64,000 nt of DNA, taken from NCBI RefSeq assembly GCF_053078305.1, contig NZ_CP166879.1. One strand, 5' to 3'. Below, piece by piece: positions 2-64,000 of this stretch. Position 1 is the stretch's first letter, and every line of letters starts with the position of its first letter. Below the pieces are notes generated by a model, which was given only the letters and a program-made list of their open reading frames with translations, was not told the origin of the DNA and searched no databases. Both the position numbers and the translations under genes were made by a program.

Positions 2-313
2 ACTTACGGTGTGCTGCCGCGCCACCCATCACAGCTTTACGAGCTGCTGCTGGAAGGTGTGGTGCTGTTTATTATCCTCAACCTGTATATTCGTAAACCG
101 CGCCCAATGGGAGCTGTCTCAGGCTTGTTCCTGATTGGCTACGGCGCGTTTCGCATCATTGTTGAGTTTTTCCGCCAGCCCGACGCGCAGTTTACCGGTG
201 CCTGGGTGCAGTACATCAGCATGGGGCAAATTCTTTCCATCCCGATGATTGTCGCGGGTGTGATCATGATGGTCTGGGCATATCGTCGCAGCCCACAGCA
301 ACACGTTTCCTGA
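2..313 (+). CDS. lgt: Prolipoprotein diacylglyceryl transferase, C-terminal part (5' end lies outside the window)
   Basis: Open frame runs from the window edge to a stop at 311-313; translation ends ...[15 protein letters not shown], recognised as the Lgt C-terminus; thyA follows 6 nt downstream. Confidence 0.85.
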
Positions 314-319
314 GGAACC

Positions 320-1114
320 ATGAAACAGTATTTAGAACTGATGCAAAAAGTGCTCGACGAAGGCACACAGAAAAACGACCGTACCGGAACCGGAACGCTT
401 TCCATTTTTGGTCATCAGATGCGTTTTAACCTGCAGGATGGATTCCCGCTGGTGACAACTAAACGTTGCCACCTGCGTTCCATCATCCATGAACTGCTGT
501 GGTTTCTGCAGGGCGACACTAACATTGCTTATCTACACGAAAACAATGTCACCATCTGGGACGAATGGGCCGATGAAAACGGTGACCTCGGGCCAGTGTA
601 TGGTAAACAGTGGCGCGCCTGGCCAACGCCAGATGGTCGTCATATTGACCAGATCACTACGGTACTGAACCAGCTGAAAAACGACCCGGATTCGCGCCGC
701 ATTATTGTTTCAGCGTGGAACGTAGGCGAACTGGATAAAATGGCGCTGGCACCGTGCCATGCATTCTTCCAGTTCTATGTGGCAGACGGCAAACTCTCTT
801 GCCAGCTTTATCAGCGCTCCTGTGACGTCTTCCTCGGCCTGCCGTTTAACATTGCCAGCTACGCGTTACTGGTGCATATGATGGCGCAGCAGTGCGATCT
901 GGAAGTGGGTGATTTTGTCTGGACCGGTGGCGATACGCACCTGTACAGCAATCATATGGATCAAACTCATCTGCAATTAAGCCGCGAACCGCGTCCGCTG
1001 CCGAAGTTGATTATCAAACGTAAACCCGAATCCATCTTCGACTACCGTTTCGAAGATTTTGAGATTGAAGGCTACGATCCGCATCCGGGCATTAAAGCGC
1101 CGGTGGCTATCTAA
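320..1114 (+). CDS. thyA: Thymidylate synthase
   Basis: 264-aa ORF, translation recognised as ThyA (…[37 protein letters not shown]…). Confidence 0.95.
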
Positions 1115-1135
1115 TTACGAAACATCGTGCCAGAG

Positions 1136-1162
1136 CCGACGCTAGTGTGCGTCGGTTTTTTT
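1136..1162 (+). terminator. Rho-independent terminator after thyA
   Basis: Stem CCGACGC / GCGTCGG with loop TAGTGT, followed by a run of seven T. Confidence 0.7.
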
Positions 1163-1297
1163 ACCCTCCGTTAAATTCTTCGAGACATCTTCCCGAAATT
1201 TTGCAACGTCCTGCAACGGCGTAAATAGTCCGGAAGATGCGCCGAAGAAATAGAAACTGGCCCTCGTCTTTTTTTCTCCTTGCTCCATACTGCCGGC

Positions 1298-1768
1298 ATG
1301 AAAACACAACGTGGTTATACGCTGATTGAAACGCTGGTCGCGATGCTGATTTTGGTCATGCTAAGTGCAAGTGGACTCTATGGCTGGCAATACTGGCAGC
1401 AGTCGCAACGGCTATGGCAAACCGCCAGCCAGGCGCGAGACTATTTGCTCTATTTACGTGAAGATGCCAACTGGCATAACCGCGACCACAGTATCAGCGT
1501 TATCAGGGAGGGGACGTTATGGTGCCTTGTGAGTTCCGCTGCTGGGGCCAATACCTGTCATGGCAGTTCACCATTGGTCTTTGTGCCACGCTGGCCCGAA
1601 GTCGAAATGAGCGACCTGACACCTTCGCTTGCCTTCTTTGGCCTGCGCAATACCGCATGGGCCGGGCATATTCGCTTCAAAAACACAACGGGCGAGTGGT
1701 GGCTGGTGGTTTCGCCGTGGGGAAGACTCCGGCTTTGTCAGCAAGGAGAAACAGAAGGATGCCTGTAA
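1298..1768 (+). CDS. ppdA: Prepilin peptidase-dependent protein A (type IV pilin-like)
   Basis: ORF in frame of 1280..1768; N-terminus [22 protein letters not shown] is a prepilin-type N-terminal methylation motif; 156 aa from the ATG at 1298. Confidence 0.85.
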
Positions 1769-2322
1769 AAGAGCAAGGTTTTTCTCTGCTGGAAGTGTTG
1801 ATTGCTATGGCGATCAGTAGCGTATTGTTGTTGGGGGCTGCACGCTTTCTGCCTGCGTTACAGCGTGAAAGTTTAACGAGCACCCGTAAGCTGGCACTGG
1901 AAGATGAAATCTGGCTGCGGGTATTTACCGTCGCGAAGCATCTCCAGAGGGCGGGTTATTGTCATGGCATCTGTACCGGCGAAGGGCTGGAAATTGTCGG
2001 ACAGGGTGACTGTGTCATTGTGCAGTGGGATGCGAACAGTAACGGTATCTGGGATCGCGAACCGGTAAAAGAGTCCGACCAGATTGGATTTCGTCTGAAG
2101 GAGCATGTGCTGGAAACGCTACGCGGTGCGACATCCTGTGAAGGTAAGGGCTGGGATAAAGTCACTAATCCGGATGCCATCATTATCGACACTTTTCAGG
2201 TCGTACGTCAGGATGTCAGCGGCTTCTCGCCGGTGTTGACGGTTAATATGCGTGCTGCCAGTAAGTCTGAACCGCAAACCGTGGTGAATGCCAGCTATAG
2301 CGTGACAGGATTCAACCTGTGA
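1759..2322 (+). CDS. ppdB: Prepilin peptidase-dependent protein B
   Basis: ATG at 1759 gives 187 aa starting [27 protein letters not shown] (prepilin-like); the upstream part of ORF 1519..2322 is treated as a spurious extension. Confidence 0.85.
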
Positions 2323-2726
2323 ACCGCGAAAAGGGTGTTTCGTCACTGGCTCTGGTCCTGATGCTGCTAGTTTTGGGTAGCTTGCTATTACAAGGAATGA
2401 GCCAACAGGATCGCAGTTTTGCCTCTCGCGTGAGCATGGAAAGTCAGTCATTGCGCCGCCAGGCCATCGTTCAGTCGGCGCTGGCGTGGGGAAAAATGCA
2501 CTCCTGGCAGACGCAGCCAGCAGTTCAGTGCTTGCAGTACGCTGGAACCGATGCCCGGGTTTGTTTGCGTTTATTGGCAGATAATGAAGCCTTATTGATT
2601 GCCGGTTATGAAGGCGTTTCGTTGTGGCGAGCAGGTGAAGTCATCGATGGAAAAATTGTTTTTTCGCCACGCGGCTGGAGCGATTTTTGTCCGCTGAAAG
2701 AGGGGGCGTTATGTCAGCTTCCCTGA
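2319..2726 (+). CDS. ygdB: Pilin-like protein in the ppd operon
   Basis: 135-aa ORF with GTG start at 2319, hydrophobic N-terminus, and 4-nt overlap with the ppdB stop. Confidence 0.8.
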
Positions 2727-3034
2727 AGAATCAACAAGGCTTTAGCCTGCCGGAGGTAATGTTGGCGATGGTGTTGATGGTGATGATTGTCACTGCGTTA
2801 TCGGGTTTCCAGCGAACATTAATGAACAGTCTTGCCAGCAGAAACCAGTACCAACAGCTCTGGCGGCATGGTTGGCAGCAAACGCAACTGCGCGCGATTT
2901 CGCCACCTACCAACTGGCAGGTCAACCGAATGCAGACATCGCAGGCGGGATGTGTCAGCATCAGCGTTACGCTAGTTTCACCCGGGGGCAGAGCAGGCGA
3001 GATGACCCGCCTGCATTGCCCGAATCGTCAGTAG
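2711..3034 (+). CDS. ppdC: Prepilin peptidase-dependent protein C
   Basis: ATG at 2711 gives 107 aa starting [27 protein letters not shown] (prepilin-like N-terminus). Confidence 0.85.
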
Positions 3035-3046
3035 TCAGGAGCCGCT

Positions 3047-6000
3047 ATGTTAAGGGTCTACCATTCCAATCGTCTGGACGTGCTGGAAGCGTTGATGGAG
3101 TTTATTGTCGAACGCGAACGGCTGGACGATCCTTTCGAACCAGAGATGATTCTGGTGCAAAGTACCGGTATGGCACAGTGGCTGCAAATGACCCTGTCGC
3201 AAAAGTTTGGTATTGCGGCAAACATTGATTTTCCGCTGCCTGCGAGCTTTATCTGGGATATGTTCGTCCGGGTGTTACCGGAGATCCCCAAAGAGAGCGC
3301 CTTTAACAAACAGAGCATGAGCTGGAAACTGATGACTCTGCTGCCGCAATTGCTGGAGCGCGAAGACTTTACCCTGTTGCGGCATTATCTGACTGACGAT
3401 AGCGACAAGCGAAAACTGTTCCAGCTTTCCTCAAAAGCGGCGGACCTGTTTGACCAGTATCTGGTCTATCGCCCGGAGTGGCTGGCACAATGGGAAACAG
3501 GACATTTGGTTGAAGGGCTGGGAGAAGCACAGGCCTGGCAAGCGCCGTTGTGGAAGGCTCTGGTGGAATATACCCATGAACTCGGGCAACCGCGCTGGCA
3601 CCGCGCGAATCTCTATCAGCGCTTTATCGAAACGCTGGAGTCCGCGACGACCTGCCCGCCGGGGTTACCTTCGCGCGTCTTTATATGCGGTATTTCCGCG
3701 TTACCGCCTGTTTATCTCCAGGCGCTCCAGGCGCTGGGTAAACATATTGAAATCCATCTCCTGTTTACCAACCCCTGCCGTTATTACTGGGGCGACATTA
3801 AAGATCCTGCTTATCTGGCGAAACTACTGACTCGCCAGCGCCGACACAGTTTTGAAGATCGCGAATTACCGCTATTTCGCGACAGCGAAAATGCCGGGCA
3901 GCTCTTTAACAGCGATGGTGAACAGGATGTCGGCAACCCGCTGCTGGCCTCATGGGGCAAGCTTGGGCGCGACTACATTTATCTCCTTTCTGACCTGGAG
4001 AGCAGCCAGGAGCTGGACGCCTTTGTCGATGTCACGCCAGATAACCTGCTGCATAACATTCAGTCTGACATTCTGGAACTGGAAAACCGCGCTGTTGCTG
4101 GTGTGAACATCGAAGAGTTTTCCCGTAGCGATAACAAACGCCCGCTTGATCCACTGGATAGCAGTATCACCTTCCACGTTTGCCATAGCCCGCAGCGTGA
4201 AGTTGAAGTTTTGCACGATCGCCTGCTGGCGATGCTGGAGGAAGACCCGACACTTACTCCGCGCGACATCATCGTGATGGTGGCCGACATCGACAGCTAC
4301 AGTCCGTTTATTCAGGCAGTGTTTGGTAGCGCACCTGCGGATCGTTACCTGCCTTACGCCATTTCCGACCGTCGTGCGCGGCAGTCACATCCGGTACTGG
4401 AAGCGTTTATCAGCCTGTTATCACTGCCTGACAGTCGCTTTGTGTCAGAGGATGTGCTGGCGCTGCTGGATGTGCCGGTGCTGGCGGCGCGGTTTGACAT
4501 CACCGAAGAAGGGCTGCGTTATTTACGCCAGTGGGTCAACGAGTCCGGCATTCGTTGGGGCATAGATGACGACAACGTTCGCGAGCTGGAACTCCCCGCC
4601 ACCGGACAACACACCTGGCGATTTGGCCTGACGCGTATGTTGTTGGGCTACGCGATGGAGAGCGCGCAGGGCGAGTGGCAATCGGTTCTACCTTATGATG
4701 AATCGAGCGGCTTAATTGCAGAACTGGTGGGGCATCTGGCTTCACTGCTAATGCAGCTAAACATCTGGCGTCGCGGGCTTGCACAGGAGCGTCCGCTGGA
4801 AGAGTGGTTGCCGGTTTGTCGCGATATGCTCAACGCCTTCTTCCTGCCGGATGCGGAAACCGAAGCGGCGATGACGCTGATCGAACAACAATGGCAGGCG
4901 ATTATCGCCGAAGGTTTAGGTGCGCAGTATGGCGACGCGGTGCCGCTGTCACTATTGCGTGATGAACTGGCACAGCGCCTGGATCAAGAACGTATCAGCC
5001 AGCGTTTTCTCGCCGGACCGGTTAACATTTGTACTCTGATGCCAATGCGTTCAATTCCGTTCAAAGTGGTTTGCCTGCTGGGAATGAACGACGGCGTTTA
5101 TCCACGTCAGCTTGCGCCATTGGGCTTTGACCTGATGAGCCAGAAACCGAAGCGTGGCGACCGTAGCCGTCGCGATGACGACCGCTATCTGTTCCTGGAA
5201 GCGTTAATTTCAGCGCAGCAAAAACTCTATATCAGCTATATCGGGCGTTCCATTCAGGATAACAGTGAACGTTTCCCGTCGGTACTGGTGCAGGAACTGA
5301 TCGACTACATCGGGCAAAGTCATTATCTACCGGGCGATGAAGCGCTCAACTGTGATGAAAGCGAGGCAAGGGTAAAAGCGCATCTTACTTGCCTCCATAC
5401 CCGAATGCCGTTTGATCCACAAAACTATCAGCCAGGCGAACGACAAAGCTATGCTCGTGAATGGCTACCTGCGGCCAGCCAGGCTGGTAAAGCACATTCT
5501 GAATTTGTTCAGCCGCTGCCGTTTACCTTACCGGAAACCGTGCCGCTGGAAACGCTACAACGATTCTGGGCACATCCGGTGCGGGCGTTCTTCCAGATGC
5601 GTTTGCAGGTGAACTTCCGTACTGAAGACAGCGAAATCCCCGACACCGAGCCATTTATTCTGGAAGGACTTAGCCGTTATCAAATCAATCAGCAGTTATT
5701 GAATGCACTGGTTGAGCAGGATGATGCCGAACGCTTGTTCCGCCGCTTCCGGGCGGCAGGGGATTTACCGTATGGCGCTTTTGGTGAAATTTTCTGGGAA
5801 ACACAGTGCCAGGAGATGCAGCAGCTTGCCGACAGAGTCATTGCCTGTCGCCAGCCGGGGCAGAGTATGGAAATTGATCTCGCTTGCAACGGTGTGCAGA
5901 TAACTGGTTGGTTGCCGCAGGTGCAGCCGGATGGCTTGTTGCGCTGGCGTCCCTCTTTATTAAGTGTGGCGCAGGGAATGCAACTTTGGCTGGAACACCT

Positions 6001-17746: not shown

Positions 17747-17791
17747 TAGGAGACCAGAAACAAAAAAACACCCGTTAGGGTGTTCAATAAT

Positions 17792-17868
<77 letters not shown>

Positions 17869-17900
17869 TCACCGTACTGCTTTATTTCATCAAATTTGAT

Positions 17901-17977
<77 letters not shown>

Positions 17978-18010
17978 TCACCGTACTGCTTTACTTCATC
18001 AAATTTTAAT

Positions 18011-18087
<77 letters not shown>

Positions 18088-18100
18088 TCCGTGGATGCGC

Positions 18101-18128
18101 ACTATACTCCGCTCGCGTTTTCATGCAA
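18101..18128 (-). promoter_or_regulatory. Candidate sigma70 promoter of the tRNA-fMet operon
   Basis: Minus strand reads TTGCAT-16 nt-TATAGT followed by a GC-rich discriminator (GCGCATCC), just upstream of the first tRNA. Confidence 0.6.
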
Positions 18129-18295: not shown

Positions 18296-19393
18296 ATGAA
18301 AGGACGTTGGGTAAAGTACCTTCTTATGGGCACGGTTGTGGCAATGCTTGCCGCCTGCTCTTCCAAACCAACCGATCGCGGACAGCAATATAAAGACGGG
18401 AAATTTACCCAGCCTTTCTCTCTGGTGAACCAGCCAGATGCCGTTGGCGCGCCGATTAACGCCGGTGATTTTGCCGAGCAAATTAACCATATCCGTAATT
18501 CGTCACCGCGTCTGTATGGCAACCAGAGTAATGTTTATAACGCGGTGCAAGAGTGGCTGCGCGCAGGCGGTGATACCCGCAATATGCGCCAGTTCGGCAT
18601 TGATGCCTGGCAGATGGAAGGTGCCGACAACTATGGAAACGTGCAGTTTACAGGCTATTACACGCCGGTAATTCAGGCGCGCCATACCCGCCAGGGCGAG
18701 TTCCAGTATCCTATTTACCGTATGCCGCCAAAACGTGGTCGTCTGCCGTCTCGTGCGGAGATCTACGCGGGGGCATTGAGTGATAAATATATTCTCGCTT
18801 ACAGTAACTCCCTGATGGATAACTTCATTATGGATGTGCAGGGTAGTGGGTATATCGACTTTGGTGATGGCAGTCCGCTTAACTTTTTCAGCTATGCAGG
18901 GAAAAACGGTCATGCCTATCGCAGCATTGGTAAGGTGCTGATCGACCGTGGCGAAGTGAAAAAAGAAGATATGTCGATGCAGGCGATTCGTCACTGGGGC
19001 GAAACACACAGTGAAGCCGAGGTTCGCGAGCTGCTGGAACAGAACCCGTCTTTCGTCTTCTTTAAACCGCAATCTTTTGCACCGGTGAAAGGGGCAAGTG
19101 CGGTGCCGCTGGTTGGCCGTGCTTCTGTTGCCTCTGATCGTTCCATTATTCCGCCAGGTACAACCTTGCTGGCAGAAGTGCCGCTGCTGGATAATAACGG
19201 CAAATTTAATGGTCAGTACGAATTGCGTCTGATGGTGGCGCTGGATGTCGGTGGCGCAATCAAAGGCCAACACTTCGATATCTATCAAGGGATCGGGCCG
19301 GAAGCCGGGCACCGCGCAGGTTGGTACAACCACTATGGACGTGTCTGGGTGCTGAAAACCGCCCCGGGCGCAGGTAACGTCTTTAGCGGCTGA
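18296..19393 (+). CDS. mltA: Membrane-bound lytic murein transglycosylase A (lipoprotein)
   Basis: 365 aa from MKGRWVKYLLMGTVVAMLAACSS (lipobox); the upstream part of ORF 18014..19393 overlaps a tRNA gene and is rejected. Confidence 0.9.
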   Translation: MKGRWVKYLLMGTVVAMLAACSSKPTDRGQQYKDGKFTQPFSLVNQPDAVGAPINAGDFAEQINHIRNSSPRLYGNQSNVYNAVQEWLRAGGDTRNMRQFGIDAWQMEGADNYGNVQFTGYYTPVIQARHTRQGEFQYPIYRMPPKRGRLPSRAEIYAGALSDKYILAYSNSLMDNFIMDVQGSGYIDFGDGSPLNFFSYAGKNGHAYRSIGKVLIDRGEVKKEDMSMQAIRHWGETHSEAEVRELLEQNPSFVFFKPQSFAPVKGASAVPLVGRASVASDRSIIPPGTTLLAEVPLLDNNGKFNGQYELRLMVALDVGGAIKGQHFDIYQGIGPEAGHRAGWYNHYGRVWVLKTAPGAGNVFSG

Positions 19394-19481
19394 TGTGATA
19401 TTCTGTATGCCGTTTTTACGGATATGACAGGGTGAGGGATAACCTCACATCCTGATTATTGACTAAGTGCGCGTTGTTCAT

Positions 19482-19579
19482 GCCGGATGCGGCGTGAACG
19501 CCTTATCCGGCCTACAAATCATGCAAATCCAAAATATTGCAGGAGTTATGTAGGCCTGATAAGCGTAGCGCATCAGGCA
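19482..19579. repeat. BIME / REP pair in the mltA-tcdA intergenic region
   Basis: GCCGGATGCGGCGTGAACGCCTTATCCGGCCTACA … TGTAGGCCTGATAAGCGTAGCGCATCAGGC, typical REP units in inverted orientation. Confidence 0.85.
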
Positions 19580-19630
19580 TTTATGCGTTTAGGGTGAGGG
19601 ATAACCTCGCCCTTTTTATTCTGAGGTGCT

Positions 19631-20437
19631 ATGTCTGTGGTAATTAGTGATGCATGGCGTCAGCGTTTTGGTGGCACAGCGCGTCTGTATGGTGAAAAAG
19701 CGCTGCAACTGTTTGCTGACGCGCATATTTGTGTGGTCGGTATTGGCGGTGTCGGTTCCTGGGCGGCGGAAGCGCTGGCGCGCACGGGGATTGGCGCAAT
19801 CACGCTTATCGATATGGATGATGTGTGCGTCACCAATACCAATCGGCAAATTCATGCCCTGCGCGATAACGTTGGGCTGGCAAAAGCGGAAGTTATGGCG
19901 GAGCGTATTCGCCAGATTAACCCGGAGTGCCGTGTAACGGTGGTGGATGATTTCGTGACGCCGGATAACGTAGCGCAGTATATGAGCGTGGGTTATTCGT
20001 ACGTGATTGATGCCATTGATAGTGTACGGCCCAAAGCGGCGCTGATTGCTTATTGTCGGCGCAATAAAATCCCACTGGTCACAACCGGTGGCGCGGGTGG
20101 GCAGATTGACCCGACGCAGATTCAGGTTACCGATCTGGCGAAAACGATTCAGGACCCGCTGGCGGCGAAGTTGCGCGAGCGCCTGAAAAGCGATTTTGGC
20201 GTAGTGAAAAACAGTAAAGGTAAGCTCGGCGTGGATTGCGTGTTCTCTACCGAAGCATTGGTGTATCCGCAGTCAGACGGTACGGTGTGTGCGATGAAAG
20301 CCACGGCGGAAGGGCCAAAGCGGATGGATTGTGCATCTGGATTTGGCGCGGCAACGATGGTGACCGCCACCTTTGGGTTTGTTGCGGTTTCTCATGCGCT
20401 GAAGAAGATGATAGCGAAAGCGGCGCGTCAGGGTTAA
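19631..20437 (+). CDS. tcdA: tRNA threonylcarbamoyladenosine dehydratase (E1-like, ThiF/MoeB fold)
   Basis: 268-aa ORF with nucleotide-binding motif VVGIGGVGSWAAEALARTG. Confidence 0.9.
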   Translation: MSVVISDAWRQRFGGTARLYGEKALQLFADAHICVVGIGGVGSWAAEALARTGIGAITLIDMDDVCVTNTNRQIHALRDNVGLAKAEVMAERIRQINPECRVTVVDDFVTPDNVAQYMSVGYSYVIDAIDSVRPKAALIAYCRRNKIPLVTTGGAGGQIDPTQIQVTDLAKTIQDPLAAKLRERLKSDFGVVKNSKGKLGVDCVFSTEALVYPQSDGTVCAMKATAEGPKRMDCASGFGAATMVTATFGFVAVSHALKKMIAKAARQG

Positions 20438-47466: not shown

Positions 47467-47490
47467 GAGACTGATGCCAAACACAAAATT

Positions 47491-47587
47491 GCCTGATGCG
47501 CTACGCTTATCAGGCCTACATGCTTTTTAATTTATTGAATTTAATTGGTTTTGTAGGCCGGATAAGGCGTTAACGCCGCATCCGGCA
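47491..47587. repeat. BIME / REP pair in the gudD-barA intergenic region
   Basis: GCCTGATGCGCTACGCTTATCAGGCCTACA … TGTAGGCCGGATAAGGCGTTAACGCCGCATCCGGC. Confidence 0.85.
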
Positions 47588-47660
47588 TAAACACAGGCAC
47601 TTTGTCACCAATCTGAAACCAGCGTCATAAAAAGCCGATTGCTACTCGACAAGACGTCCG

Positions 47661-63307: not shown

Positions 63308-63645
63308 TTAAACATTTATAAGCGTTATAAATGGGTGGAACCTGTAAAGACTTCTACTCATTTATATTCTTTGTCGTCTCTGAAAAACCTCCATTTTGCC
63401 CATCCTGAACTAATCATTATCATTCTCTACAAATTCTGTGGCGTTAATTTTTCACTGGAGTGAAAATTATTGCGGTAAAGTTTGGTAGATTTTAGTTTGT
63501 ATAGAGTTATTTTAAATATTTACCTTTTTAATCAATGGGTTAAGTGCTCTTTAACATAATGGATGTGTTGTTTGTGTGATACTGTAAAGTTGGTAGATTG
63601 TGACTGGCTTAAAAAATCATTAATTAATAATAGGTTATGTTTAGA
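63308..63645 (+). promoter_or_regulatory. AT-rich CRISPR leader
   Basis: About 340 bp of AT-rich non-coding sequence immediately upstream of the first repeat; orientation matches the crRNA-sense repeat. Confidence 0.7.
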
Positions 63646-64000
63646 GAGTTCCCCGCGCTAGCGGGGATAAACCGTAATGAGTCAGGGGAATACCGAATAT
63701 TTTATAGAGTTCCCCGCGCTAGCGGGGATAAACCGAAATTTATCGAGATCGGCAGGGGTTACTGACAGAGTTCCCCGCGCTAGCGGGGATAAACCGGCCG
63801 TTAATCCGGACTGCCAGCGAATAACGCTGAGTTCCCCGCGCTAGCGGGGATAAACCGCAACATATTTAAACGATTTAAGCCAGGCATATGAGTTCCCCGC
63901 GCTAGCGGGGATAAACCGGGATTCATCACGCGGTTATCCGGGGGCCGTTAGAGTTCCCCGCGCTAGCGGGGATAAACCGGTGGTTGCGGGGTTATCGGTG
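63646..64000 (+). CRISPR. Type I-E-like CRISPR array; 6 repeats and 5 complete spacers in the window, array continues beyond the window end
   Basis: 29-nt repeat GAGTTCCCCGCGCTAGCGGGGATAAACCG at 63646, 63707, 63768, 63829, 63890 and 63951, with 32-nt spacers: TAATGAGTCAGGGGAATACCGAATATTTTATA / AAATTTATCGAGATCGGCAGGGGTTACTGACA / GCCGTTAATCCGGACTGCCAGCGAATAACGCT / CAACATATTTAAACGATTTAAGCCAGGCATAT / GGATTCATCACGCGGTTATCCGGGGGCCGTTA; a sixth spacer is cut by the window end. Confidence 0.95.

Follow-up and report, generated by a model that had tools for sequence, protein, structure and literature searches.

The mltA-tcdA spacer holds a BIME-1 between two copies of one hairpin

We analysed the spacer between mltA and tcdA in a 64,000-nucleotide stretch of DNA (NCBI RefSeq assembly GCF_053078305.1, contig NZ_CP166879.1), here denoted the window, to which all positions refer. 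The spacer, bounded by the mltA stop codon (TGA, 19391-19393) and the tcdA start codon (ATG at 19631), contains a bacterial interspersed mosaic element of type 1 (BIME-1) with a hairpin on either side (Table 1). The initial annotation had noted an 18-bp direct repeat, AGGGTGAGGGATAACCTC, bracketing a pair of repetitive extragenic palindromic (REP) sequences, and this description proved correct. The 18-mer has two exact plus-strand copies, at 19429-19446 and 19591-19608; the chance expectation is 0.03, and two matches were reproduced in none of 100 shuffles. Between them lies a complete BIME-1, as a single unit. No further match was found elsewhere in the window when up to three mismatches were allowed, and, tRNA and CRISPR arrays aside, the pair is the only perfect local direct repeat of such length in the window.

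The 18-mer is most of an intrinsic terminator stem-loop that many Enterobacteriaceae have between mltA and tcdA. Copy 2 (19591-19613) folds into a 9-bp stem with one G.U pair and six GC pairs, closed by a GATAA loop (-17.2 kcal/mol, z = -3.9). Past the 18-mer it continues as CCTCGCCCT, and the T run (19613-19617; UUUUAUU in the RNA) ends 13 nt before the tcdA ATG; terminator scan and fold thus agree with the earlier description of a hairpin and T-run just before the start codon. Copy 1 continues after the 18-mer as CCTCAC-AT-CCT and also folds as a whole hairpin, with a 2-nt AU bulge (-15.4 kcal/mol), so that the duplicated unit is the entire 23-nt stem-loop; the 18 nt are merely the portion still identical in the window's strain. 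The copies are homologous over 20 nt, of which one is polymorphic (CAC versus CGC), and in K-12 a single loop base distinguishes them (GGTAA versus GATAA). Copy 1 has no T-tract, which stays with copy 2.

The 137-bp insert (19454-19590) consists of a Y and a Z1 REP in inverted orientation around a 34-nt long (L) linker, close to the family length of about 33 nt, in one non-tandem unit. BIME-1 elements are described as a Y REP, an L linker with a site for integration host factor (IHF) and a Z1 REP, located at the 3' ends of transcription units (PMC3333891). The insert shares with BIME-1 (also RIB or RIP; Gilson 1991, Bachellier 1994, Boccard & Prentki 1993, via PMC3333891) the REP types, their orientation, the long linker and the outer motifs, and it is likewise a single copy in a 3' untranslated region (UTR); it differs by its truncated right outer motif. 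At the predicted IHF-site region the linker reads ATCCAAAATATTG, the family consensus being TTCAATATATTG. The Rfam model ES036/CssrF matches positions 19515-19557 with 46.5 bits (gathering score 37.6), and naRNA4 matches the Y REP weakly, under its gathering score. As a side observation, the ES036 (CssrF small RNA) family model appears to describe the linker of a repeat element and not a unique small RNA gene.

The 28-nt left motif recurs in the mscK-rsmS spacer, as a decayed copy after gltD and in the barA-gudD BIME-1. A consensus of 37 loci (see below) has the form tcAgATTgcTgACAaaGTGCgCtTTGTTcAT - Y - L - Z1 - AaTTTTgCgTTTGtCatCa..., in which the outer motifs pair and the unit of about 155 nt folds into one long hairpin (-39 kcal/mol, DNA parameters). 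The focal copy is without the last 12 nt or so of the right motif, and its transcript folds with z = -7.2. The insert is therefore a BIME-1 with outer motifs or, in later vocabulary, a REPIN (a REP doublet forming a hairpin), since in the consensus folds both the Y/Z1 REPs and the outer motifs pair.

Table 1. Features of the mltA-tcdA region of the window.
Feature	Position	Strand	Basis
mltA coding sequence (murein transglycosylase A)	18296..19393	+	Open reading frame list; 1098-nt coding sequence at identical loci in RefSeq
Putative extended -10, TG-A-TATTCT, candidate tcdA promoter	19396..19404	+	Comparative; 3 nt past mltA stop
Hairpin copy 1, AGGGTGAGG-GATAA-CCTCAC(AT)CCT, with first 18-mer	19429..19453	+	Fold
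BIME-1 left outer motif GATTATTGACTAAGTGCGCGTTGTTCAT, 28 nt	19454..19481	+	Recurs at mscK, gltD and barA loci and in 37-locus consensus
Y-type REP (palindromic unit)	19482..19515	+	Exact Y REP pattern match
Long (L) linker, 34 nt, IHF-site region of the family	19516..19549	+	Rfam ES036/CssrF; consensus alignment
Z1-type REP, inverted relative to Y REP	19550..19578	+	REP pattern, inverted-repeat arms
BIME-1 right outer motif ATTTATGCGTTT, 12 nt, truncated, without the usual GTCATCAGTCTC	19579..19590	+	Comparison with consensus
Hairpin copy 2 (19591-19613) and T-tract, intrinsic terminator, with second 18-mer	19591..19619	+	Terminator scan, fold, MG1655 Term-seq
tcdA ribosome-binding site GAGG	19623..19626	+	Sequence; TCTGAGGT conserved across genera
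tcdA (tRNA ct6A37 synthase; formerly ygdL/csdL)	19631..20437	+	Open reading frame list, RefSeq annotation

The hairpin next to tcdA is a leaky intrinsic terminator

The initial annotation had proposed that the hairpin could insulate or attenuate tcdA from mltA read-through and that mapping of 3' ends would show it. Published Term-seq data from K-12 MG1655, which is not the window's strain, provide such a map, and we checked its coordinates against the annotation. A 3' end at MG1655 position 2945855 (minus strand), 13 nt upstream of the tcdA ATG, falls on copy 2 (Adams et al. 2021, eLife, PMC7815308). The sequence at this end is ...AGGGTGAGGGATAACCTCGCCCTTTTTA/A... (slash, 3' end), and it was detected in LB (lysogeny broth) at an optical density of 0.4. 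It received a Rho score of 0.55 ('No') and an intrinsic-terminator score of 12.2, values of at least 3 in the latter denoting intrinsic termination (PMC7815308). Copy 2 thus has both the GC-rich stem-loop with U-tract of an intrinsic terminator and a Rho-independent 3' end in vivo. Termination is leaky, because coverage in 800-nt windows drops only from 107 upstream to 65 downstream of the end (PMC7815308). The proposed terminator is therefore supported, as a partial one.

The same data set lists an antisense 3' end just past copy 1, at MG1655 2946050 on the plus strand (minus strand of the window, 19429-19453), under another growth condition than the copy 2 end (Adams et al. 2021). It suggests transcription through the BIME that ends at copy 1 or is trimmed back to it.

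Rho-independent terminators and BIME-associated attenuators (Espeli, Moulin & Boccard 2001; PMC2965389) share with copy 2 the GC-rich stem, the U-tract and a 3' end near the start codon. ygdL, the former name of tcdA, was placed in a cluster of predicted BIME-associated attenuators (Naville & Gautheret 2010, PMC2965389). In contrast to these, the terminating hairpin here contains no REP; it is an older, genus-spanning hairpin, probably split and duplicated by the BIME.

A TcdA-based scan, with one genome per species, yielded 80 Enterobacteriaceae loci. In the searched stretch past the mltA stop codon, 32 of the 80 carry a TGnTAnnnT motif, mostly 3-4 nt after the stop. They belong to Escherichia, Salmonella, Enterobacter, Leclercia, Kosakonia, Phytobacter and Pseudescherichia, and the remaining spacer is unrelated among them. 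Pseudescherichia, with a 41-nt spacer, has the motif and the ribosome-binding site and no hairpin. The gap between hairpin and ribosome-binding site is too short for a promoter. From this comparison, TG-A-TATTCT in the window is a likely candidate for the extended -10 element of a tcdA promoter upstream of the hairpin. If so, the terminator would lie within the tcdA leader, and the BIME-1 of the filled allele would be part of both the tcdA 5' UTR and the mltA 3' UTR. The hexamer GATAAC in the hairpin loop was also considered as a promoter and rejected, since loops vary between genera and the hexamer has no preceding TG.

Hairpin and T-tract may on these grounds act mainly as an attenuator in the tcdA leader, metering expression besides ending mltA transcripts, a view of function compatible with the origin of the repeat described below. 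The constant position of TGnTAnnnT amid a variable spacer, the arrangement in Pseudescherichia, the missing room for a promoter after the hairpin, the partial read-through and the published prediction for ygdL speak for it. Against it, a simple two-hexamer promoter scan found nothing, no conserved anti-terminator structure is evident, and covariation is uninformative, the loops being variable and the stem nearly invariant. On balance we rate attenuation as a serious candidate that falls somewhat short of an even chance.

Some 40-80 nt upstream of tcdA, Buttiauxella, Cedecea and relatives carry a different hairpin in this spacer, CGGGCTG-TATAAT-CAGCCCG, with a T run behind it (loci L040, L042, L050, L051, L054, L058-L060, L063 and L068). 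A perfect TGTATAAT extended -10 lies inside the loop of that terminator, so terminator and promoter may overlap there.

About half of E. coli genomes lack the element and one hairpin copy

A 371-nt query across the spacer was compared with about 5,425 complete E. coli genomes in RefSeq. The filled allele (hairpin, BIME, hairpin) is present in 2,751 of the 5,425, and in nearly all remaining genomes the matching span is 161-162 nt shorter, the 162-bp indel being equal to the start-to-start spacing of the repeat. Aligned short alleles have one hairpin and no BIME. The empty allele of UTI89 reads AGGGTGAGG-GGTAA-CCTCACCCT-TTTTAA, with a perfect stem, and that of ETEC1738 ...GATAA-CCTCGCCCT. Among the genomes sampled, none has two hairpins without an intervening REP element. 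The comparison across strains suggested earlier therefore gave a uniform answer: genomes without the BIME keep one hairpin and never two. We read 8 empty alleles, 9 filled alleles and one hybrid base by base, about 20 E. coli alleles in all; the genome sample, composed of RefSeq complete genomes and metagenome contigs, is biased.

Whole BIME-1 elements were reportedly found to be present or absent among natural E. coli isolates by Bachellier and colleagues in 1997.

The search for other genomic copies, also suggested earlier, gave 1-3 places per E. coli genome with a 40-nt hairpin query. The total of 8,248 places in 5,425 genomes is close to the prediction of one place per empty and two per filled allele. 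For matches of at least about 20 nt, the hairpin is not a dispersed repeat. As a shorter sequence, GGGTGAGGG, the 5' arm of the tcdA hairpin is also the tail of box C-like repeats, CCCTCTCCCTGAGGGAGAGGGTTAGGGTGAGGG, which occur in the mltA-tcdA spacer of three loci (L018, L065 and L076) and beside one E. coli BIME-1 (L109). This tail is what could be said for taking the 18-nt repeat as a chance match or as a member of a dispersed family; with the shuffles and the 1-3 places per genome against it, the explanation can practically be dismissed, the dispersed family being ruled out for matches of at least about 20 nt.

A third allele, in about 77 genomes, was seen in E. coli strain 104 (L104, 1301-1726). 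Here the filled allele is cut 5 nt past the Y REP, ...GGCCTACAAATC/TGGCAGAAG... (slash, cut). The cut is followed by a repetition of the final 224 nt of mltA, by the spacer and by one hairpin, which is identical to that of the ETEC1738 empty allele. The two mltA 3' copies come from different haplotypes, because 8 of 284 sites differ. The extra piece is annotated in RefSeq as a partial '3D domain' pseudogene.

The same arrangement is found at other BIME-1 loci

A pattern scan of metagenome contigs (end of a Y REP, 25-40 nt, start of a Z1 REP) gave 108 usable instances at 42 distinct loci. At the 37 typical loci the left flank was aligned to the right flank, with all mismatched locus pairs as the null. 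Flank-to-flank similarity reached p<0.02 at 12 of the 37 loci, 0.7 being expected, and p<=0.0015 at eight. At almost all duplicated loci the copies directly adjoin the outer motifs: the left one stops 29-32 nt short of the Y REP, and the right one begins 23-26 nt past the Z1 REP. The segments so repeated are 18-35 nt long and nearly always fold as a hairpin, each locus having its own. At mscK, for example, the flanks are GGGGGCGACATTTAGTTGCCCC on the left and GGGGACATTTAGCGGCCCC+ATTTATTT on the right, with the hairpin on both sides and the T-tract on the right only. Irrespective of duplication, a stable hairpin abuts at least one element end at 26 of the 37 loci (19 left, 18 right); control windows 60 nt outward contained hairpins in 8 (left) and 3 (right) cases. 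That this architecture occurs at a third of the sampled loci indicates that hairpin duplication accompanies BIME-1 integration and is no local accident.

Presence and absence were followed at seven loci (Table 2). The empty pitA-uspB and fbaA-mscS alleles have exactly one hairpin copy, and the empty mscK allele has one, more diverged; mscK alleles were compared by eye, the MAFFT alignment being misleading. At the empty fliA-fliC and yvcK-uvrB sites, the comparison places the element directly 3' of one hairpin, and no more than 4 nt are repeated. Landing at the foot of a hairpin thus looks general, with duplication in about one third of cases.

Table 2. Presence and absence of BIME-1 at seven loci in 5,425 E. 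coli genomes.
Locus	Flanking duplication	Filled	Indel
mltA-tcdA	yes	2,751/5,425	162 nt
mscK-rsmS	yes	3,880/5,425	170-172 nt
pitA-uspB	yes	1,940/5,425	173 nt
fbaA-mscS	yes	3,719/5,425	167 nt
barA-gudD	no	5,205/5,425 (96%)	
fliA-fliC	no	3,501/5,425	156 nt
yvcK-uvrB	no	3,675/5,425	154 nt

The barA-gudD element is the second BIME-1 of the window (47480-47610, minus strand). Its outer motifs have diverged, it has no flanking duplication, and a bidirectional terminator lies just past its Z1 side. Its near fixation prompted the idea that direct repeats are required for BIME-1 dimorphism, which was rejected because fliA-fliC and yvcK-uvrB are dimorphic without repeats.

BIME-1-like places per genome, counted by megablast, range from about 4-9 in sequence type 131 (ST131) and other B2-like genomes to at least 40 in K-12 and relatives, suggesting large lineage differences in BIME-1 load. 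One 50-kb piece of K-12 (L102) contained no BIME-1.

An old insertion followed by repeated loss is the most economical history

Across genera, the tcdA-proximal hairpin of the 80 loci has the form GGGTGAGG-loop-CCTCACCC-T5-(A)ATTCTGAGG. It is single and without a BIME in Phytobacter massiliensis, which has the same left context, and in Enterobacter, Salmonella, Leclercia and others; since it is single-copy and BIME-less in several genera, one hairpin is deeply ancestral. The filled allele, truncated at its right end just as in the window, ...GCATTTATGCGTTT/AGGG (slash, end of the element), is carried by E. albertii and by two divergent Escherichia lineages (L004 and L006). Their BIME is 95-98% identical to that of the window, and the flanking genes are 90.5-94.7% identical. 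Because these outgroups share the filled allele, truncation included, the insertion predates the split of E. coli and E. albertii. The suggestion that the repeat is a footprint of the arrival of the REP cluster is supported, with its timing corrected: the single-hairpin empty sites and the same layout at other BIME-1 loci support a footprint, and an arrival within E. coli has to be given up, as E. albertii and the two Escherichia lineages were already filled.

The empty alleles of E. coli point to loss. The eight that were read represent seven haplotypes. Trees built by neighbour joining from the mltA and the tcdA-csdE flanks show filled alleles scattered among empty ones, and all outgroups are filled. 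Two derived markers can be followed, a loop G (GGTAA) in copy 1 of most filled alleles and a stem G (CGC) in copy 2. The copy-1 marker is present in the empty alleles of UTI89, K-15KW01 and 05-3629, and the copy-2 marker in those of ETEC1738, MRSN346355, Z22-7 and 1532MA; the empty allele of 1916D18 has neither and is identical to Enterobacter. This pattern is the expected product of crossovers at differing points between the two copies. A targeted search demonstrated filled alleles also on left-flank haplotypes first met only in empty alleles. One filled allele (L103), whose copies match fully over 20 nt and whose copy 2 is perfect, is a suitable parent for the UTI89 type. The empty alleles of E. 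coli most likely arose, more than once, by precise deletion between the two copies, and one old insertion followed by repeated precise deletions is the most economical reading; homologous recombination that moves alleles between lineages surely also contributes.

Two other histories were weighed against this one. If the single-hairpin allele were ancestral within E. coli, the filled allele would be a recent BIME insertion that spread. The single hairpin of more distant genera fits this order of events, as do the first seven filled alleles, which sat on one left-flank haplotype while the empty ones were diverse. Phylogroup B2 genomes such as UTI89 are moreover empty at mltA-tcdA, and ST131 gave only 8 BIME-like matches to an mscK BIME-1 query, compared with at least 40 in K-12. 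A recent insertion is nevertheless improbable: the orthologous filled allele with its truncation occurs in E. albertii and the two divergent lineages, the wider search placed filled alleles on diverse left flanks too, and the empty alleles bear derived markers otherwise proper to copy 1 or copy 2 of filled alleles. The repeat could also be older than the element and unrelated to its arrival, two independent tandem terminators having later received a BIME between them. Kosakonia sp. S29 (L022), with a pair of hairpins around a different REP cluster, and the maintained structure of copy 1 in E. albertii would suit such tandem terminators. Every sampled genome with two hairpins has a REP element between them, at least 11 other BIME-1 loci duplicate their own unrelated hairpin at the same positions relative to the element ends, and a single hairpin occupies the empty sites of pitA, fbaA and mscK; we regard this history as more improbable still, with very little left in its favour.

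We consider the whole account of anatomy and history, in which a BIME-1 inserted, the hairpin was duplicated and losses followed, to be well founded and probably right. Several points weigh against it. Two thirds of the BIME-1 loci have no duplication, and two of these, fliA-fliC and yvcK-uvrB, are dimorphic with at most 4 nt repeated; duplication is thus not obligatory, and presence/absence polymorphism does not depend on direct repeats. Recurrent deletion is not fully separable from recombination that shuffles a few old alleles. The two hairpin copies around a different REP cluster in Kosakonia sp. S29 may mean that the event is older than Escherichia or recurrent. With respect to mechanism, transposition of the IS200/IS605 (Y1) type, the favoured model for REP/BIME mobility, proceeds without target duplications (PMC3333891; PMC2817692).

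The Kosakonia cluster (L022), of species-type REPs, begins with a left motif resembling that of BIME-1, CAGATTTTTGACAAAG, and closes with the right motif in full, TTGTCAGCAATATCA. Phytobacter diazotrophicus (L013) has the same insert with copy 1 lost. Two explanations offer themselves for these loci, an insertion that long predates Escherichia or two separate hits on one hairpin.

Copy 1 of one E. albertii locus (L005), about 200 nt upstream of tcdA, reads AGAGTGAGA-AATAA-TCTCGCTCT. Five stem substitutions relative to AGGGTGAGG/CCTCACCCT, namely two compensatory pairs and one wobble, keep pairing throughout and retain a perfect 9-bp stem (-12.3 kcal/mol), which hints at selection on the structure of copy 1. 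The left outer motif of this locus lacks 11 nt, GATTATTGACT.

A model of integration at the foot of a hairpin

In the proposed history, a BIME-1 would have integrated in an Escherichia ancestor at the 3' foot of the hairpin, between stem and T-tract, leaving the hairpin on both sides in the manner of a target-site duplication of hairpin length. Copy 2, beside the T-tract, is the working, leaky terminator shown by Term-seq; copy 1, having no U-tract, would be a non-terminating stem-loop, and transcripts would run through the BIME-1. Direct copies around a hairpin-forming insert would then offer a substrate for precise excision, slipped-strand or recombinational, that removes the BIME and one copy (162 bp) and restores a single terminator. 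Recurrent excision could thereby have produced the observed pattern, in which E. coli is about half filled and half empty. We infer that integration produced the duplication and that slipped mispairing or recombination between the copies produced the losses.

Insertions of the Tn10 and Tn5 type are precisely excised in E. coli through slipped mispairing of short direct repeats on either side of inverted repeats. The mltA-tcdA locus shares with these systems direct repeats (18-23 bp) around a palindromic insert (137 bp) and an exact single-copy product; it differs in that the repeats are longer than 9 bp and are themselves hairpins.

The duplication might instead have nothing to do with insertion chemistry, and have arisen secondarily by slipped-strand duplication, kept by selection to rescue the terminator. 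That the intact copy adjoins the T-tract at tcdA, mscK, pitA and several other loci is in line with a rescue, and so is the lack of a T-tract after the hairpin, on the element side, at fliA-fliC and yvcK-uvrB, which have no duplication. At fbaA-mscS, however, the 35-nt duplication includes a far-side A-run, so that no terminator needed rescue, and at every duplicated locus the copies lie within a few nucleotides of the element ends, where one event is simpler than two. Secondary duplication is for these reasons unlikely, and we prefer duplication by the integration itself.

How integration would do so is conjecture, and our confidence in any particular enzymatic mechanism is low. One tentative possibility is that BIME-1 integration recognises structure, the element landing at the 3' foot of GC-rich (terminator) hairpins and turning its Y REP side to the hairpin, and that an HUH/Y1-type enzyme such as TnpA_REP nicks both strands at the 3' feet, with joining and fill-in duplicating the hairpin. 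An extruded target palindrome nicked in this way would yield 3' overhangs that each carry the palindrome; the 3'-OH ends could join element ends linked through 5'-phosphotyrosine, a chemistry described for TnpA_REP (PMC3333891), and fill-in would duplicate the hairpin. Insertion into a single strand would leave no duplication. Alternatively, replication stalled at a hairpin could switch templates.

The element can be compared with two classes of mobile repeats. With REPINs mobilised by REP-associated tyrosine transposases (RAYTs, TnpA_REP; Bertels & Rainey 2011; Nunvar 2010; Ton-Hoang 2012) it shares the REP doublet, the single long hairpin and a dispersed, intergenic distribution; the E. coli tnpA_REP gene lies between yafL and fhiA, outside the window (PMC3333891). 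The single-strand Y1/HUH model for RAYTs predicts no target duplication and a short, sequence-specific target, whereas the target here is structural (a hairpin's 3' foot) and one third of the copies have an 18-35-nt duplication. A variable duplication of hairpin length is thus unlike the predictions of current Y1-transposase models for REPs. The absence of duplication characteristic of IS200/IS605 is seen at fliA-fliC and yvcK-uvrB and not at mltA-tcdA or at 12 of the 37 BIME-1 loci. Miniature inverted-repeat transposable elements (MITEs) likewise have termini that pair (here AGATTGCTGACAAAG with its reverse complement AGAnTGATGACAAACG) and flanking direct repeats; unlike in MITEs, which combine terminal inverted repeats with a fixed short duplication, the duplication here is of no fixed length, tracks the local hairpin (18 to about 35 nt) and is missing from most copies. 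REPs have been described as having no MITE signatures (Delihas 2011).

In the accessible literature, key papers of the 1990s apart, we found no description of a hairpin-length or locus-specific hairpin duplication flanking BIME-1. How REPs and BIMEs spread has been an open question since the 1980s: TnpA_REP, the accepted candidate enzyme, cleaves and rejoins REPs in vitro, no integration footprint has so far been known, and reviews describe REPs as having no transposon signatures. The footprint at mltA-tcdA and 11 further BIME-1 loci, where the element abuts a local hairpin that is duplicated on its far side in a third of cases, and the single-hairpin empty alleles at four duplicated loci point to a definite target, the foot of the hairpin, and to a geometry that can be tested. 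Should integration indeed recognise structure, this would be the first sequence footprint from which to reconstruct the integration step of REP/BIME elements, and it would explain why BIME-1 elements occupy the 3' ends of transcription units and yet leave terminators intact. The account also makes sense of a frequent kind of intergenic presence/absence polymorphism in E. coli. Whether the site is filled or empty alters the 3' and 5' UTR lengths of the neighbouring genes, here mltA and the tRNA-modification gene tcdA. Taken alone, mltA-tcdA is a modest case and largely known, its terminator having been mapped and its BIME catalogued; the general footprint is what is added.

Other repeats of the window

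Two arrays account for the other local repeats mentioned above. Three tandem units of about 109 nt at 17790-18117, upstream of mltA, are the initiator tRNA genes metZ-metW-metV, which the K-12 annotation places on the strand opposite to mltA. At 63640-63983 lies a CRISPR array of six GAGTTCCCCGCGCTAGCGGGGATAAACCG repeats with a spacing of 61 nt, which reaches the end of the window.

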